Source: Acidimicrobiia bacterium (GTDB lineage: Bacteria > Actinomycetota > Acidimicrobiia > Spongiisociales > ZC4RG35). From it: 64,000 bases of DNA. Both the position numbers and the translations under genes were made by a program. Below the pieces are notes generated by a model that was not told the DNA's origin, made no database searches, and worked only from the letters and a program-made list of their open reading frames with translations. Positions within the stretch are counted from its first letter, which is position 1. Each line of letters opens with the position of its first letter. Shown in pieces: positions 2,779-51,789 of this stretch. The stretch lies in NCBI GenBank assembly GCA_036259475.1, contig DATABS010000071.1:3913-67912 (forward strand), read 5' to 3'.

Positions 2779-3951
2779 CTACTCCCCTCCTGGGTTGAGC
2801 TGAACTTCGATCCGCTCCCAGTCATTGCCGTGGACGTCCAGACCCTTCTCTTCGAGGGCGGCGACGGCGGACTCGGCGAGGTCGGACCGGTATACGTCTT
2901 CGCCGATCTCCACGCCTTGGAGATCAGGGATCTGTGTTGTGGCGATCTCCACGGTCTGGTTCCACAGCTCTTCGTTCATGACACCGATTCCGTTGCTGGC
3001 GGGCCAGATGAGCGCATTGATCTCGTTCATCATCCACGTCTGGTGGCTGAGGCCCAGGGTAGAGCCGGCGTCGAGCACAGACTGAACGCAGGAGTCGGGG
3101 TTGTCACGGCAATAGATCCACCCCTCGAAGCTCGCCTCCAGGAACCGCTCCGCAATGTCCTCGTTGTCGGCGATCCACTCGGCGTTGACCCACAGTGCGT
3201 CCTGCAGCATGGCCGTGCCCACCTCATTGAAGTCGATGACGCTGAGGTCCTCCGGTTGGTACAGCTCGCCCGTGTCGGGGTTCTCTGCCTCGAGGACCTG
3301 GGCGTACTCGTTGTAGGTCATGGCCTCGGCCGAGTCGATCTCCCGATTGAGCAATGCCGCCATCGTGAAGTCCTGTGCCACCAGTTCGACGTTCTGAACA
3401 TCGAACTTCTCGATCGCCGCCAGCAGCTCGTATTCGTTGCCGAATCCCCAGTTGCCGACGACCTTGCCTTCCCAGTCCTCGGGAGCTGTGATCCCGGAAT
3501 CGGCCCAGCTCACCATGAGGGTGCCCGATCGCTCGAACATCTGGGCGACGTTGATGATGTCGGCGCCGGCCTGGCGGGATACCAATGCCTTCGGCACCCA
3601 GGCGATTCCGAACTCGGCGCCTCCCGAGGCGAGGACCTGCTGAGGGACGATATCGACGCCGCCCTCGAGGATCTCCACGTTGAGGCACCGGTCGTCGTAG
3701 TAACCCCGGTCGATGGCGGCGTAGTAGCCGGCGAACTGAGCCTGGGCGAACCACTGCAATTGGAGGCGAACGTCGTCGGGTGTCTCACACGCCTCGGCCG
3801 ATCCGGTGTCGGTCGCGGCTGTGTCGGTGACGGTGTCATCGGTCGTCGTGTCTTCCGTGCCGGCTACGTCGGCGTCATCGCCGCAGGCGGCGAGGGCCAA
3901 CGCCAAAATCGCCACCAGGGCGATCAGTCGGCGGTACATGGATGTCATCAT
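2779..3951 (-). CDS. ABC transporter substrate-binding lipoprotein, NMT1/THI5-like (NitT/TauT family)
   Basis: There is a lipobox signal (LALALAACGDD) and an NMT1-like body. The start ATGATG at about 3951 follows an AGGAGGA RBS; the upstream part of the listed ORF is unlikely to be translated. Confidence 0.8.
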   Translation of the reverse strand: MMTSMYRRLIALVAILALALAACGDDADVAGTEDTTTDDTVTDTAATDTGSAEACETPDDVRLQLQWFAQAQFAGYYAAIDRGYYDDRCLNVEILEGGVDIVPQQVLASGGAEFGIAWVPKALVSRQAGADIINVAQMFERSGTLMVSWADSGITAPEDWEGKVVGNWGFGNEYELLAAIEKFDVQNVELVAQDFTMAALLNREIDSAEAMTYNEYAQVLEAENPDTGELYQPEDLSVIDFNEVGTAMLQDALWVNAEWIADNEDIAERFLEASFEGWIYCRDNPDSCVQSVLDAGSTLGLSHQTWMMNEINALIWPASNGIGVMNEELWNQTVEIATTQIPDLQGVEIGEDVYRSDLAESAVAALEEKGLDVHGNDWERIEVQLNPGGE

Positions 3952-23438: not shown

Positions 23439-23929
23439 ACCGCCAGAACTTCATCGGCGACTGATTCCACCGTCTTGCCGTCGGTCGCCACCGTGGCGTG
23501 GGCCGCTTCCCGGTAGCGAGCCTCCCGCTCTTCCACAAGCGTGCCGAGCCGTTCGACGGGGTCGTCGGCCTGGGCCAGGAGCGGACGGCTCCCGTCCCGT
23601 CCCACCCTTTCGGCCAACGTCGAGGGTGCCGCTGTCAACCACACGACCAGTCCGGACGAACGCATCACATCGATGTTCGTCCGATCGAGAATCGCCCCGC
23701 CGCCCGTGGCCACGACCACCGGCTCACCGGCCGCTGCCGAAGCGATCATCTGGCTCTCGAGGTGGCGAAAGGACTGCTCGCCTTCGTCATCCCAGAGTTC
23801 CGTGATCGACGATTCCGTCACGGATGCCACCAGGAGATCGGTATCGACGAAGTCGAGGCCGAGGTGAGCCGCCACCGCCATCCCGACAGTGGTCTTGCCG
23901 GAGCCCATCATCCCGATGAGCCACAGCAT
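23423..23929 (-). CDS. aroK: shikimate kinase
   Basis: P-loop GMMGSGKTTVG in a 168-aa protein. Confidence 0.9.
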   Translation of the reverse strand: MLWLIGMMGSGKTTVGMAVAAHLGLDFVDTDLLVASVTESSITELWDDEGEQSFRHLESQMIASAAAGEPVVVATGGGAILDRTNIDVMRSSGLVVWLTAAPSTLAERVGRDGSRPLLAQADDPVERLGTLVEEREARYREAAHATVATDGKTVESVADEVLAVWNAS

Positions 23930-25086
23930 CAGAACTCGGCCAAACGGGCCCGGTAGCGTTCGGCGGCAGCCACGACGTCGTCGACGGTGTCGCCGCCGAA
24001 CTTGCGCATCGTCTCGTCCGCCAGCACGTAGGCCACCATCTGCTCACACACCACCCCCGCCCGCGGCACGGCACAGGTGTCGGAGCGCTCGAAAAACGCC
24101 TTGGCCCCCTCTTTGGAGTCGACGTCCACCGTGTCCAGGGAGCGCATGACGGTCGAGATCGGCTTCATGGCGGCGCGCAGGCTGAGAACTCCCCCGATCG
24201 TGATGCCGCCTTCGGTGCCGCCGGCGCGGGCGGTCTGCCGGGTGAACGATGCACCGTCGTGGTAGATCTCGTCATGGGCCTGGCTGCCCCGGCTGCGTGC
24301 CTGGCGGAATCCGTCTCCCACCTCGACTCCTTTGATCGCCTGGATGGACATGAGCGCGTGAGCCAGCCGTCCGTCGATCTTGCGGTCCCAGTGGACGTGA
24401 CTTCCCAAACCGGGGGGAACGCCGTAGGCGAGGATCTCGATGACTCCTCCGAGTGTGTCGCGGCTTTCCCGTGCTCCCCGGATCTCGGCTTCCATCTGAG
24501 CCGTGCTGGCGGGGTCGAAGCAGCGGACGGAAGAGGCGTCGATGGTTCCCAGGTCAGAAGGCTCCGGTCGAGGCATGTCCTCGGGGGTCCGAACGGTACC
24601 GATCTCGACGACGTGGCTGAGGACGGACATGTCGAGGTGGGCGATCAGCAGCTTCGACAGGTATCCCACGACGGTGCGGGCTGCCGTCTCCCGCGCCGAC
24701 GCCCGCTCCAGGATGTTGCGGGCATCGTGCGTGTCGTACTTCAGCATTCCGGCGAGGTCGGCGTGTCCCGGACGGGGCGTCGTCATTCGCCGTTTGGCGG
24801 TGCCGGCCCCCGGGTTCATCTCCTCGGACCATTTCGTCTCGTACTCGGTGTTGCGGATCAGCACGGCCACCGGTGATCCGAGGCTGCGCCCGTGGCGAAC
24901 ACCGGCGAGGATCTCGATCCGGTCCTGCTCGAGGCCCATCCGTGGGCTGCGACCGTAACCCAATCGGCGTCGCGCCAATTCGGCCGCCAACCCGTCGGAA
25001 TCGAACTCGAGGCCGGCCGGGAGCCCCTCGATGGTGGCGACGAGGCCGGGGCCGTGGGATTCGCCCGCTGTCAGGAACCGCAGCAC
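23929..25086 (-). CDS. aroC: chorismate synthase
   Basis: LRFLTAGESHGPGLVA gives the canonical N-terminus. The GTG start is at 25086; the upstream 58 codons of the ORF run into the repeat region and are not credible. Confidence 0.9.
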   Translation of the reverse strand: MLRFLTAGESHGPGLVATIEGLPAGLEFDSDGLAAELARRRLGYGRSPRMGLEQDRIEILAGVRHGRSLGSPVAVLIRNTEYETKWSEEMNPGAGTAKRRMTTPRPGHADLAGMLKYDTHDARNILERASARETAARTVVGYLSKLLIAHLDMSVLSHVVEIGTVRTPEDMPRPEPSDLGTIDASSVRCFDPASTAQMEAEIRGARESRDTLGGVIEILAYGVPPGLGSHVHWDRKIDGRLAHALMSIQAIKGVEVGDGFRQARSRGSQAHDEIYHDGASFTRQTARAGGTEGGITIGGVLSLRAAMKPISTVMRSLDTVDVDSKEGAKAFFERSDTCAVPRAGVVCEQMVAYVLADETMRKFGGDTVDDVVAAAERYRARLAEF

Positions 25087-25099
25087 GTCGACGATGCTA

Positions 25100-25340
25100 C
25101 CGACCACCGGTTGTGGCGCCGCATTCGGCGGACCGCTCGAGCGGCGGCGGGGCGTGGAACCCAGGGTTCTAGTCCTGCCTGGCGGTGTCCCGGCCCACGG
25201 TTCGCTCGGCGGGCGGGGGTTGGCGGCGGTCCGTGGAACCCAGGGCTCTAGGCCCCGCATAACGGGGACTCCCGCCCACGATCCGCTCGGCGCGGCTGTG
25301 GCTGGCGCCGGAGCCTGGAACCCAGGGATCTAGGCACCGT
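25100..25340. repeat. three tandem ~80-bp degenerate repeats (MIRU-like), each ending in the core GTGGAACCCAGGGNTCTAG
   Basis: Core copies lie at 25154-25172, 25233-25251 and 25316-25334, with 79 and 83 bp periods. The preceding parts of each unit also align (cccacgNtNcgctcggcg...). The first core contains the perfect palindrome GAACCCAGGGTTC. The units generate three overlapping artefactual ORFs ending WNPG(F/L/I). Confidence 0.8.
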
Positions 25341-25369
25341 GTCTCGCGAGGTGTGCGACTCGAAACGTC

Positions 25370-26089
25370 TCAGAGCAGCATCTGAACCAGGCGCTCTCCG
25401 CCGATGATGGATATCCAGGTGCCGACGATCATCGGCGGCCCGTAGGGAATCTCCGACTTGGCTCGGGCGCTACCGCCCAGAACGGCCGCCAATGCGACCA
25501 GCCCTCCCACGGCGGCGGTTGCCATCCCGGCCAGCAACAGCCTGTCCCATCCCAAGAAACCGGTGAACAACCCCAGCGAAACCGCCAGCTTCACGTCCCC
25601 GAAACCGAATCCTCCTCGGGCCACCAGATAGACCATTCCGAAGAACCCGGCATAGGCGAGGGCTCCCAGGAGCGCTCTGGGAAAAGAAGAAAGCGTGCCA
25701 TCCGCTACGGCGCCCAACATCAGAAGGCCTGCGAGCAGCGGCGTGCCGGGATACGTGATCCGATTCGGGATCCGCTTGTGGTCGACGTCGGTCAGGAAAA
25801 GGGCGACCGTCATGGCGGCGAAACCCAGATACGGGATCAGTACCCAGACCGGACCCAACGCCATCGCGATCAGACCACTGAGGATGCTGGTGACCAGGGC
25901 GGTCGCAATCGCCCGCGTGATTCTCAGACCGCAGGACGAACACGAAGCCAGCAGCGAGTTCGGTGCGCCGCAACGACGACAGACTCCCGCCCCCACGCCA
26001 AACGGGAGATCGGCTCCCGCCTGGACGGCGACGTGGTGGATCAGAGGACCGGCGAGCAGCCCGGCGACAGCCGAGAGGGCGACGTGCAC
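25370..26089 (-). CDS. type IV prepilin peptidase (A24 family)
   Basis: An N-terminal CxxC...CxxC zinc-binding region is followed by a polytopic peptidase A24 domain (GFGDVKL). Confidence 0.85.
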   Translation of the reverse strand: MHVALSAVAGLLAGPLIHHVAVQAGADLPFGVGAGVCRRCGAPNSLLASCSSCGLRITRAIATALVTSILSGLIAMALGPVWVLIPYLGFAAMTVALFLTDVDHKRIPNRITYPGTPLLAGLLMLGAVADGTLSSFPRALLGALAYAGFFGMVYLVARGGFGFGDVKLAVSLGLFTGFLGWDRLLLAGMATAAVGGLVALAAVLGGSARAKSEIPYGPPMIVGTWISIIGGERLVQMLL

Positions 26090-26134: not shown

Positions 26135-27232
26135 TCAGCTGTCGGCAAGCTCGCGGAAGGCGGCGCCGAGGCCACGCCGTCGCAACAAGCCGAACCCACC
26201 GTCCTCGGGATCATCGTCATCGTCATCGTCATCGTCGTCGTCGTCGTCCGACGCCTCTTCGGTCTTCTCGAGCTCGCCGAAGACCGTCTCGAGGAACGAT
26301 CCGTCGGCCGGTTCGTCCTCCCGCGGCTCGGCCGGCTCTTCGACCTCGTCCTCGGCCGCCTTACCCCACCAGGAACGATCGGCTTGAGAATCGACCTCGG
26401 ACACCGGCTCCGTCTCAACGACCGGCTCGTAGACCGGCTCTGGCTCGGTGATCGCGTGCTGGACGCTTTCTATCGATCCCACGTAGGAGGACTCATAGGT
26501 GGAACGGGGTGCCTCGGGAACGGCGACTGCTTCGACCAGCCGGGCCCTGGACAACTCGGCCATCCGCCGGGCAGTCTGGAAGGTGGTGAGCCCGAGACGG
26601 CCGGCCAGATCGTAAACGGAGCACGAACCCTCCATGGCGGCCAGGAACCGCCAGGCACTGTCACTGAGATTGACCGAATCCTCGTCGATCTCGGGAACCA
26701 TGTGCCAGGGGGTGGAGAGGTCGGGGACGACGGTCTCGATGTCGGCCCAATCGGCCGCCCGGCGCTCCGCCTCTGCGATGATCATCTCCACGTCGAAGGC
26801 CTGACCGGTGGCGTAGCGAGGTCGGGAGTCGATGAGGAACTCGAAATGGCCCGACTGGGGGCGCTGAATGCGGTAGATCGACTCCACGCACTGCTCGCGG
26901 ATCAGGTCGGTCAGGGCCGAGCTGGCGGCGGACGGCGCCAGCGCCTCGGTCAGGGTGCCCCGGGAGACATCGAGCCGGCTGAGCCCGTCCTGGGAGGCGA
27001 TCCCGGACGCCAGCAGATGGTCGCGGATGGCCTCATCGCCTTCGACGGTGGCGTAGGTGAGTGATCCGCCTTCCATGTAGACCCGGCCCGATCCGGCTCC
27101 CTCGACCCGCAGGCAGCCATTCTGGTGCGAGCGCGCCAGCAGGCGAAGGACCTCTTCGAGAGGGAAGATCTCGAGTTTTCCGCTTAGCGACATTGAAATT
27201 CTCCTTTGGTGACCTTCGCCGTCATATGTCAT
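26135..27232 (-). CDS. DUF4388-domain protein with a C-terminal acidic tail containing a D13 homopolymer
   Basis: The N-terminus LSGKLEIFPLEEVLRLL matches DUF4388 (PatA-like response-regulator-like). The C-terminus is extremely acidic (EEASDDDDDDDDDDDDDPEDGG). It overlaps the aroE start by 10 nt. Confidence 0.7.
   Translation of the reverse strand: MTYDGEGHQRRISMSLSGKLEIFPLEEVLRLLARSHQNGCLRVEGAGSGRVYMEGGSLTYATVEGDEAIRDHLLASGIASQDGLSRLDVSRGTLTEALAPSAASSALTDLIREQCVESIYRIQRPQSGHFEFLIDSRPRYATGQAFDVEMIIAEAERRAADWADIETVVPDLSTPWHMVPEIDEDSVNLSDSAWRFLAAMEGSCSVYDLAGRLGLTTFQTARRMAELSRARLVEAVAVPEAPRSTYESSYVGSIESVQHAITEPEPVYEPVVETEPVSEVDSQADRSWWGKAAEDEVEEPAEPREDEPADGSFLETVFGELEKTEEASDDDDDDDDDDDDDPEDGGFGLLRRRGLGAAFRELADS
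26205..26249. repeat. trinucleotide microsatellite (ATCGTC)4(GTC)5, encoding poly-Asp in the DUF4388 gene
   Basis: The plus strand reads tcatcgtcatcgtcatcgtcatcgtcgtcgtcgtcgtcgtcc. Confidence 0.9.
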
Positions 27233-49647: not shown

Positions 49648-50694
49648 TTACTCCTTCCGGGCGTCAATGGTAGTTCGATGACGAATAACCGCCGATTCGT
49701 AAGCTGCCCGGTAGAGACCCAGCACCCGCCCCCAGTCGAAGCGGGAGGCGGCCTCCTGCGCCCGCTCGGCGAGGGTCTCGCGGCGCCCTCCGTCGGTGAG
49801 GAGGAGAGCCACTTCGCGGGATAGCTCCTCGGCGTCTCCGGGTCGCACGAGGACGCCGGTGCCCGCCAGGACGGCGTCGAAAGCCGGAAGATCCGAGGCG
49901 ACGACCGCGCAGCCGGCCGCCATCGCTTCCGCGACCGTGATGCCGAAACTCTCCCCGCCGAGGTTGGGGGCAACCATCACCGACGCCGACGCCAGCGTGG
50001 CTCGCTTCGTCTCTTCGTCGACCCTGCCCCGGAATTCGACGCCCGGCACGGTCCGGCTATGTCCCCGCCCGAGCACCACCAGCTCTGCGTCCGAAACGGT
50101 CCGGCGGATCGCCGACCACGCCGCCAGCAGCACCTCCAGGCCCTTGCGAGGATCGTCGCGACCCAAGAACACGACCCGGTGGGCGCGACGCGGGACCGGT
50201 ACCCGGTAAGAGGGCACGTCGATGGCGTTGGGAATGATCACCGGCTCGCCCCATCGGACGGGCAGTGCTTCTGCCGCCACCGCGCTGGCCGCCGTGACGA
50301 CTGAGTCGCCCAGGAGGCGCCGACCGATTCTGGAAGCGGACCGATACACACGGCGAGTCCAGGGCGCCGGGTCGGCGTGGAATGTGGCCACCGTCGGCTT
50401 GTCGAGGGTGAGAGCGGCCCAGCCGACGACGGGAATGAACGGCTCGTGGACGTGGACGACGTCGACGTCCGCCAGCCGGCGTCGGATGGAGGCGATGGCG
50501 CGGGGGTCGAGGGAGAGCGGCACGCTTGATCGGTTGGCGGACACCGAAACGGTGCGGCCGGTCTCCGGAGTGCCCGGTCCGACCAGCCGCGGGTCGTCGC
50601 CCGCCTCGGCGAGCCGGACGGCCAACTCCCGGCACAGCTGCTGGACGCCTCCGTCGGTGGTGAGGTCATAGGGGCAGACGATCCCGATACGCAT
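49648..50694 (-). CDS. pimA: GT4-family glycosyltransferase, probable phosphatidylinositol mannosyltransferase (PimA-like)
   Basis: It has a GT-B fold with the EX7E-like region ([16 protein letters not shown]). Synteny pgsA-acyltransferase-GT4 matches the actinobacterial PIM locus. Confidence 0.65.
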
Positions 50695-50766
50695 CAGCGC
50701 GCCGTGGCGAGCATGCCGCCGCTCACCGGTGACTCCAGCCCACGGTACGACCGGTGGTTGGCGAGC

Positions 50767-50785
50767 GTGGAACTTTGGGTTCTAG
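50767..50785. repeat. isolated fourth copy of the 19-bp core GTGGAACnnnnGGTTCTAG (here gtggaactttgggttctag) in the pimA upstream region
   Basis: It is identical to the aroC-upstream tandem repeat core except for the 4-nt centre, and lies in a 204-bp spacer 5' of pimA on the minus strand. Confidence 0.7.
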
Positions 50786-50898
50786 ACAACGCCTGAGGGG
50801 TCTGCAGCCCGCGGTTCGTGCCTCGTCTTCGCTGCGAATTGGGCGGGCGTCACACATGAGCTGCGGTCTCGACCTACCGCCGGCTCCTGGCCCCTGAG

Positions 50899-51789
50899 TC
50901 ATGCCTTGTCCGACGGCCAGTTGGGCTGCACGAGGTGCCATTGGCCGGGATCCCGGAGGATCATCTCCTCCAGCTTGGCCGCGATAACCTGAACCGACTC
51001 CGTTGGTGTGGCGCCTTCCGGGAACTCGAGGGGCGGATGGATCACCGCATGGTGGCCCGGTCCGTCCTTGAAGTAGATCGCTACGGGGATGATCGGTGCT
51101 CCGGCGTTCCGGGCGATCGAGACAGGGCCGAGCGGGAGTGTGGTCTCCTCGCCGAAGAACTCGACGCCCACTCCCCGGCCGGAGATGTCGCGGTCGGACA
51201 ACAGGCAGACAGCCTTACCGTCCTTGACCGCCCGCACCAGCTTGGGACCCAACCGACCCTGGCCGGTGAGGATGATCTCGATCCCGAACATGCTCCGCTG
51301 GTGCGTGAACCACTCGGTGATCCGCTGGTTGGCGAGGCGCTCGGCCACCGCCACGACCGTCAGGTCGAGGTGGAGTCCGATCAGGGCGGCGATCTCCCAG
51401 TTACCCAGATGCGGCAGGACCACGATCATTCCCTTCCCCGCCGCCATCGCCTTCTCCAGGTTCTCGATGCCGTCGACGGTCATCGAGGACCACAATGAGG
51501 AGAACCGCCGGGGTCTCACCCAAAAAGACTCGGCCCAATACCGCCCGTAGGACATGAACACCCGGCGGGCGCTCGAGGCGGGCTGGCCGAGGCGTTGCAT
51601 GTGGCGGCGGGCGATCCGGCGACGGGCGGGATCCACGGCGTACCACACGAGACCCCCCCACCTTCCCAGCCGGCGGATGGCCGCCTCCGGCAACATCCCG
51701 AGGAAGCCAACCGCCAGACGCAAGGCAGCGAAGGAGACCCACTGCATCGCCCGTCCAGTTCGCTCCACGGCCGATCGCCGGTCAGACAT
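50899..51789 (-). CDS. lysophospholipid/lauroyl acyltransferase (LPLAT/HtrB-like; PIM acyltransferase-like)
   Basis: It is LpxL/HtrB-family (WAESFW, PHLGNWE), at the position of mycobacterial PatA. Confidence 0.75.
   Translation of the reverse strand: MSDRRSAVERTGRAMQWVSFAALRLAVGFLGMLPEAAIRRLGRWGGLVWYAVDPARRRIARRHMQRLGQPASSARRVFMSYGRYWAESFWVRPRRFSSLWSSMTVDGIENLEKAMAAGKGMIVVLPHLGNWEIAALIGLHLDLTVVAVAERLANQRITEWFTHQRSMFGIEIILTGQGRLGPKLVRAVKDGKAVCLLSDRDISGRGVGVEFFGEETTLPLGPVSIARNAGAPIIPVAIYFKDGPGHHAVIHPPLEFPEGATPTESVQVIAAKLEEMILRDPGQWHLVQPNWPSDKA

Follow-up and report, generated by a model that had tools for sequence, protein, structure and literature searches.

What is the tandem array that separates a prepilin peptidase-family gene from aroC in this stretch of DNA: a set of operator sites, an RNA element, a local duplication or one cluster of something more widespread? 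The preliminary description had seen here three tandem ∼80-bp repeats with a shared 19-bp core, one copy of which held a perfect palindrome. The repeats are real. In the window, by which we mean the entire 64-kb (64,000 nucleotide) stretch that was analyzed, the strongest array reported by Tandem Repeats Finder is at 25143-25339, with a period of 82, 2.5 copies, 78% matches and a score of 222, several times that of any other array in the window. A repeat search recovers three in-register copies that are 79 and 82 nt apart; the first value is that given originally, while the second replaces an original 83. Similarly, 18 nt of the core, TGGAACCCAGGGNTCTAG, are common to all copies, with exact matches at 25155, 25234 and 25316 (expected count 0.12; 0 of 100 shuffles reach it), while the leading G that would make it 19 is found in two copies only, copy 3 having CTGG at this place. 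The palindrome, GAACCCAGGGTTC, is indeed perfect in a single copy, at 25157-25169, so that the core is a 13-nt perfect palindrome in that copy and a 19-nt near-palindrome overall. Every gene around the array lies on the minus strand, and in the sense direction of these genes the array reads CTAGANCCCTGGGTTCCA. Its parts and its neighbors, in the order of transcription, are as follows.

25370-26089, minus strand: upstream gene, peptidase A24 (prepilin peptidase family), from PF01478 on the identical protein and from homologues
25087-25369, minus strand: intergenic spacer of 283 nt that holds the whole array, from the peptidase A24 stop TGA (25370-25372) to the aroC start GTG (25084-25086)
25316-25333, minus strand: half-unit, a right arm alone (CTAGATCCCTGGGTTCCA), 37 nt past the peptidase stop codon; exact core match, 10-11 bits against the full models
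25285-25315, minus strand: outer linker of 31 nt between unit 2 and the half-unit, 0.62-0.72 identity to the other linkers
25234-25284, minus strand: unit 2, the best preserved, with left arm GGATCGTGGGCGGGAG (25269-25284), hairpin UCCCCG-UUAUG-CGGGG and right arm CTAGAGCCCTGGGTTCCA
25204-25233, minus strand: C-rich outer linker of 30 nt between units 1 and 2, read from the sequence
25155-25203, minus strand: unit 1, a full ∼50-nt element adjoining aroC, with left arm GAACCGTGGGCC (25193-25203), a decayed central hairpin and right arm CTAGAACCCTGGGTTCCA
25093-25101, minus strand: GGTAGCATC, six nt upstream of the aroC GTG, from a comparison of the junctions of the window and contigs L005, L009, L016, L017 and L018
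23929-25086, minus strand: downstream gene, chorismate synthase (aroC), from PF01264, with the GTG start and the N-terminus VLRFLTAGESHG conserved in relatives

Unit 2 contains TCCCCGTTATGCGGGG. The copy nearest the peptidase gene (25316-25333) has no recognizable left arm, and 68 nt lie between the end of the last unit and the aroC GTG.

Gene calls and Pfam searches, the latter made on the identical genes of contig L005, confirm the original placement of the array inside an operon, between the peptidase A24 gene and aroC. The cluster comprises aroE, the gene of a PatA_N protein, peptidase A24, aroC, aroK, aroB, efp and nusB, every one on the minus strand. The closest named homologues of the flanking proteins are from Acidimicrobiia or Actinomycetota MAGs and the host is therefore not a mycobacterium. 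Three plus-strand open reading frames that had been set aside as false, ending WNPGF, WNPGL and WNPGI (24873-25172, 24892-25251 and 25031-25333), do exist, each terminating on a core TAG; they run antisense to the true genes and are artefacts. On the sense strand the core TAGs at 25155-25333 occupy all three frames, the spacings of 79 and 82 both being 1 mod 3, and because three frames are covered a ribosome that read past the peptidase stop would be halted. Arrays found elsewhere (see below) have a 71-nt period, which is 2 mod 3 and has the same three-frame TAG effect; this may be coincidence. A separate repeat in the cluster, the microsatellite (TCATCG)6.3 at 26211-26248, lies in the gene of the PatA_N-domain protein (26135-27232, minus strand), where it codes for a run of Asp residues close to the C-terminus; this run has 13 Asp in the window and 9 in L006, a 96% identical strain, so that its in-frame length differs between strains.

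How the spacer came to be so long can be judged from relatives that have the same gene order and a peptidase that is 60-64% identical. In these the peptidase stop and the aroC start are 18 nt (L009-L017) or 34 nt (L018) apart, as compared with 283 nt (window), 201 nt (L005) and >216 nt (L007), and the core motif is absent up to about 10 kb on either side of the gene. The empty junction has the layout TAG-nnn-GGTAGCATC-N6-GTG, with GGTAGCATC kept in the relatives and present as the variant GGTACCATC in L018. Because the window retains GGTAGCATC-N6-GTG directly before aroC, the additional ∼265 nt were inserted between the stop codon and GGTAGCATC. L007, an 80% relative, carries one unit at the same junction and in the same orientation, and its contig ends 70 nt further on. 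Comparison of filled with empty junctions revealed no clear target-site duplication.

Conserved across these junctions, whether filled or empty, GGTAGCATC marks the ancestral junction and the true start of aroC (25086); it may serve in ribosome binding or translational coupling as a signal of an unusual kind. The aroC frame (23929-25329, minus strand) is open for 82 extra codons upstream, through two repeat units, with an ATG at 25260, so that gene callers could predict a false, longer AroC. An N-terminally extended AroC of 443 aa initiated at this ATG was considered and rejected, since an 82-nt indel would break the frame and relatives place the start at the GTG after GGTAGCATC-N6. The gene caller behind L005 had placed the aroC start at a GTG seven codons too early.

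The core is part of something larger. The unit is an imperfect inverted repeat of ∼50 nt, in which a left arm GAACCGTGGGCTGGAG is followed by a GC hairpin, short and of variable sequence, and then by a right arm (T)CTAGAACCCTGGGTTCC; a linker of 20-32 nt is added to it. The copies in the window share the left arm of the family, so the 19-nt core of the preliminary description is the right arm alone. A covariance model, R2, was built from units outside the window only and run with filters off. R2 recognizes 25234-25284 with 42 bits (E 4e-10), 25155-25203 with 37.6 bits (E 8e-9) and a further site, 50768-50817, with 35.3 bits (E 4e-8), and over the 64-kb window there is no other match with E<0.01; with a model R1, unit 1 (25155-25203) scores 50.1 bits. 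The third site belongs to a second locus, ∼25 kb away, where a loose pattern search gives the following elements.

50768-50817, minus strand: full unit (GAACCGCGGGCTGCAGACCCCTCAGGCGTTGTCTAGAACCCAAAGTTCCA), the R2 match
50731-50748, minus strand: lone left arm (GTACCGTGGGCTGGAGTC), 21 nt downstream of the full unit

The inventory of the window is thus two full units and one half-unit in the array (25143-25339), with one more full unit and a lone left arm at the distant site. The second locus occupies a gap of 204 nt between the gene of a phosphatidylinositol-mannoside acyltransferase (50899-51789; an open reading frame of 296 aa, traced via the homologue P0121) and that of a pimA-like glycosyltransferase (49648-50694) and, like the first, is inside an operon and on the sense strand. 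The 204 nt of the window compare with 13 nt at the pimA junction of 65% relatives (L070-L072), while in the 68% relatives L068 and L069 the junction is 436 nt long and holds four or more units, which are oriented the other way. The pimA-like ATG is preceded by TGATG, in which a stop overlaps a start (window 50692-50714, minus strand; L068 4270-4280); in the window TGATG ends a six-codon mini-ORF, ATGCTCGCCACGGCGCGCTGA (MLATAR*), situated just after the lone left arm and absent in L070-72.

It had been suggested that the core be sought elsewhere, and it is found both at this second locus and on other contigs. A metagenome search with the core gave 47 loci, of which most are chance matches in low-GC or coding sequence; a clear family is apparent on L032, L033, L035, L041 and L044, all from one metagenome, and on L048, L034 and L064. 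As these loci were fished out with a 17-nt core, likeness in the right arm is partly built in. Contigs that bear arrays number at least five from the one metagenome, to which L048, L034, L003, L004 and L064 are added, and the arrays, frequently at contig ends, contain between two and about five units, repeated every ∼71 nt. Several independent metagenome contigs stop inside the repeat core, including L006 (end, 2704-2717) and the ends of L032, L035 and L044. Within an array successive arms have opposite orientations; inner spacers measure about 16-18 nt and outer linkers 20-32 nt (window, L032, L033, L035, L041 and L068). The common form of the unit has fixed internal mismatches, the two arms differing at set positions (GT versus CA, CTGG versus TTCT), and L003 and L034 carry 'perfect' doublets, GAACCCAGGGTTCTAGAC-N14-GTCTAGAACCCTGGGTTCC, with a folding z-score of -10.5. 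Most units have CTAG as the tag at the foot of the stem; 2 of 22 aligned units have GTAG, and a few have TTAG, CCAG or another variant.

At the high-GC family loci (window, L003, L004, L007, L032-L035, L041, L044, L048, L064 and L068) all copies examined are intergenic. The sites are diverse. Units follow a deaminase gene, rpoD and a tmRNA-like 3' end; they precede the genes of a histidine kinase and of a dimethylglycine-dehydrogenase-like protein; and they separate a P5C-dehydrogenase gene from the one that comes next, and the convergent glyQS and lrp-like genes from each other. Units occur in both orientations with respect to transcription, usually 6-37 nt from a stop codon, and the open reading frames that adjoin the arrays look like ordinary metabolic or regulatory genes when their translations are inspected by eye rather than by Pfam scan. 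In L034, a contig of 60% GC from a different organism, a NUDIX-hydrolase gene of ∼560 bp (about 2960-3580) is flanked by inverted repeats of ∼30 nt, CGCGCCCGACACGTCGCGAACCCAGGGTTC ... GAACCCTGGGTTCGCGACGTGTTGGGCGCG, which hold the same 13-nt palindrome as the core; the gene directly follows a tmRNA-/tRNA-like 3' end and a terminator hairpin, and together with the inverted repeats it may constitute a small mobile cassette.

Other collections yielded little. A core scan of genome contigs from species representatives, which do not include the source genome, returned four single matches and no genome with multiple matches; those in Streptomyces and Sulfotelmatobacter look like chance. The sole match of the viral scan is inside the coding region for ...LEPWVP... 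and is likewise attributed to chance, and the plasmid collection has nothing that resembles either the spacer of the window or the array of L032. Rfam gave no match for the whole window at gathering thresholds, and a permissive scan of 25000-25450 produced a mir-345 match alone (E 5.5), again chance. A literature search for the motif recovered an unrelated primer only, and one on repeats of Acidimicrobiia recovered nothing.

The copy number of the repeat had been predicted to vary between strains, and it does. Over 5.2 kb L005 (a Logan contig, SRR13837113) differs from the window by one SNP and by a deletion of 82 nt, exactly one period, leaving two cores as opposed to three; unit 2 is the one that is missing. 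The joint of the deletion lies within a shared 12-nt stretch, CCCTGGGTTCCA, giving CTAGAT...TTCCA|CGGACC, and in the two-core allele it is spelled by CTAGATCCCTGGGTTCCACGGACC. The sequence of the deleted unit is unique, which makes two cores the derived state, and because the units are ∼78% alike, with only about 12 identical nt at the joint, neither allele can arise from the other through k-mer assembly. Both are known from assemblies, as opposed to inspected reads, and both should exist in reads. The L006 contig comes to an end within the first core. At the second locus the sample of L005 shows no variation, its sequence being identical there.

We next consider structure. Intact units form a long hairpin, with z-scores of -2.2 to -10.5, and unit 2 (25234-25284) folds as the hairpin of the family at -25.9 kcal/mol (z -2.1). 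The z-score of unit 1 is 0.0 and that of 50768-50817 is also about 0, and the spacer as a whole, a stretch of 293 nt, is not stabler than its shuffles (z -1.2). Thus, of the suggestion that the palindromes act as mRNA hairpins it can be said that hairpins are plausible, but that the relevant one is the ∼50-nt unit and not the 13-19-nt core, and that two of the three full units in the window no longer out-fold their shuffles, having mostly lost the advantage in folding. In an alignment of 22 units 82.7% of cells are paired, as compared with 78.2% in column shuffles (0 of 500 reach the observed value) and ≤59.9% when one side is slid, and five of the eight pairs of the central helix show changes on both sides. 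Mismatches on the top strand of the element are G.T in 24 cases versus A.C in 6; the copies are not independent, and the excess is no more than a hint that folding involves one particular strand, be it as RNA or as single-stranded DNA. A scan of the spacer for promoter and terminator consensus sequences produced no match, and no terminator-like tail was seen on the units. With two units devoid of a folding advantage and a spacer z-score of -1.2, the case for any RNA-level role of the window array is weak.

Taken together, these data make it likely, in our opinion, that the array is a cluster of a dispersed family of non-coding hairpin repeats from an Acidimicrobiia-like lineage, with REPIN/BIME architecture and with gain and loss of units in the manner of a minisatellite, where the lineage is named from the flanking proteins of the window and dispersal is seen as two loci in 64 kb and as short metagenome contigs. 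The family is apparently undescribed, and seemingly mobile. An element would have entered what was formerly an 18-nt peptidase-aroC junction, as the empty sites of the relatives suggest, and arrival at this and other loci would have been by some form of transposition or templated insertion. Local amplification of a unit together with its linker would then have built the array; linkers average 0.62 identity within arrays versus 0.50 between arrays, in a small sample. Whole units would subsequently be gained or lost via slippage or unequal recombination between the invariant cores, of which one loss, of 82 nt, has been observed. Most probably the array is transcribed as part of the aro operon, where it would separate two formerly coupled cistrons and may, as an RNA-structure barrier, impede exonucleases as REPs do. 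The copies in the window are old and partly decayed, and no regulated function of the array is indicated.

A more specific version of this model is possible, although we regard it as rather doubtful. It would have the repeats be a 'CTAG-tagged' REPIN/BIME-type family of Acidimicrobiia that is moved as single-stranded DNA by a putative HUH/RAYT-like enzyme, that preferentially colonizes the few nucleotides separating a stop codon from the following cistron, thereby breaking translational coupling, and that then expands into minisatellites, an independent non-mycobacterial counterpart of MIRUs. If so, the mechanism would have left two traces, namely the 4:1 bias of mismatches on one strand toward G.T as opposed to A.C, and a TAG that hardly varies at the foot of the stem.

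Several other explanations were weighed against that of a dispersed repeat family. The units could be a selected cis-acting RNA element, a stability barrier, processing site or translational uncoupler that sets the peptidase:aroC ratio, with dispersal being secondary. Units on the sense strand inside operons (L007, L048, L035 and the two loci of the window) are what one would expect of such an element, as are positions that are often 6-37 nt past a stop codon, stems that on the top strand tolerate G.T over A.C, and a hairpin kept by compensatory changes. Yet relatives run the same operons without units, the arrays of L033, L044 and L068 are antisense to their flanking genes, the hairpin has been lost in two of the window units, near-identical strains differ in copy number, and there is neither an Rfam family nor a terminator-like tail. 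We therefore consider a selected RNA element to be unlikely.

Very unlikely is the proposal, raised in the preliminary description, that the palindromic cores are operators, specifically for a dimeric transcription factor that regulates aroC. In its favor are the palindrome itself (13 nt and perfect in one copy, 19 nt and nearly so overall) and the finding of a related one at this junction in the 80% relative L007. However, just one of the three copies is perfectly palindromic, the variable position is one that breaks the symmetry while the symmetry-neutral flanking TAG is nearly invariant, and the motif makes up only one part of a 50-nt unit. Moreover, arrays are found, in both orientations, by unrelated genes, between convergent ones and after rpoD, glyQS and a tmRNA-like gene, which do not amount to a coherent regulon; units are absent from the same operon in other relatives, and there is no promoter-like site nearby.

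Even less credence can be given to a purely local tandem duplication, a one-off minisatellite unrelated to any dispersed family. Local duplication no doubt contributed, given the similarity of the linkers within the array (0.62-0.72), but the unit is present at the second window locus and on many unrelated contigs as well, and is recognized by a model trained without the window. Finally, a CRISPR array has identical repeats, unrelated spacers, a leader and cas genes; a degenerate CRISPR-like array, or else an assembly artefact, has next to nothing to recommend it, for although conserved ∼50-nt repeats do alternate with 'spacers' of 20-32 nt and contigs do break at the repeat, the spacers resemble each other, the two to five units are inside housekeeping operons with no cas genes nearby, the array is reproduced in independent assemblies of different samples (L005, L006), and the ≤ about 12 identical nt at the deletion joint are too short for k-mer collapse.

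Uncultured Acidimicrobiia are common in soils and waters, and while small palindromic repeats are well studied in Proteobacteria (REP, BIME, REPIN) and in mycobacteria (MIRU), they are to our knowledge essentially uncharted in these organisms. A dispersed repeat family of this kind has practical consequences. It breaks metagenome assemblies, as seen from the contigs that end in the core; its length-variable loci are possible strain markers in metagenomes; and it creates spurious open reading frames and false N-terminal extensions, aroC being an example. The two comparisons of filled with empty sites, in which cistron pairs 13-18 nt apart have been pushed to 200-440 nt, amount to a natural experiment on what operons tolerate. 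The current understanding of how such elements work is unchanged by these results, and interest would grow if a novel mobilizing enzyme or a rule for targeting positions close to stop codons were demonstrated.

It remains to place the repeat among known systems. MITEs have terminal inverted repeats and a target-site duplication, and a parent IS shares their ends. Like the MITE-type repeats (Correia/NEMIS, ERIC, RUP and BOX) the units described here are small, non-coding, structured and dispersed, with inverted-repeat ends and, most likely, co-transcription with their neighbors; unlike them, the unit is much shorter (∼50 nt) and typically arranged in tandem arrays rather than as single insertions.

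MIRUs, with which the array had been compared at the outset, are units of 40-100 nt in direct tandem at operon junctions, with inverted repeats and a strain-variable number (PMC3184786); they insert at start codons with a -4 overlap and have an internal ORF coupled to the flanking genes (PMC12548453). The resemblance in layout is borne out by tandem units of 79-82 nt at an intra-operon junction, and extends to the size of the unit, filled and empty sites among relatives, a high-GC actinobacterial host, imperfect terminal inverted repeats, internal GC-rich inverted repeats and VNTR behavior. Identity with MIRUs is not, as the host is Acidimicrobiia-like, of another class, units lie in either orientation with respect to genes, and there is no coupled ORF internal to the unit; in a three-frame translation of the sense strand, no ORF runs from the peptidase stop to the aroC start. 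The repeat works like a MIRU or BIME minisatellite and is not a member of the MIRU family, from which these features set it apart.

The closest parallels are with REPs, BIMEs and REPINs, short GC-rich imperfect extragenic palindromes whose inverted pairs fold as a hairpin, that form alternating clusters and that have an xTAG-type tetranucleotide at the foot of the stem (PMC2817692, PMC3116915, PMC3337134, PMC3733652). REP families also reach more than ∼100 copies in a genome and have a cognate RAYT (Y1/HUH) transposase whose gene the repeats flank. As in a REPIN, two inverted arms and a short spacer form one long hairpin; as in BIMEs, arms alternate regularly with alternating linkers, and dimers are repeated in tandem including the flanking DNA; and as for the REPs of Enterobacteria and Pseudomonas, the sites are just past stop codons and inside operons. 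There are differences as well. The tag is CTAG here in place of the GTAG or CGTC of REPs, the arms differ at fixed positions, the core arm is itself a 13-nt palindrome, and the host is Acidimicrobiia-like, a group with no mention in the one survey checked (PMC3733652). On its architecture, the feature would be at most an unclassified relative of the REPs. It is a new family of a familiar kind of small selfish or neutral repeat, in a new host.
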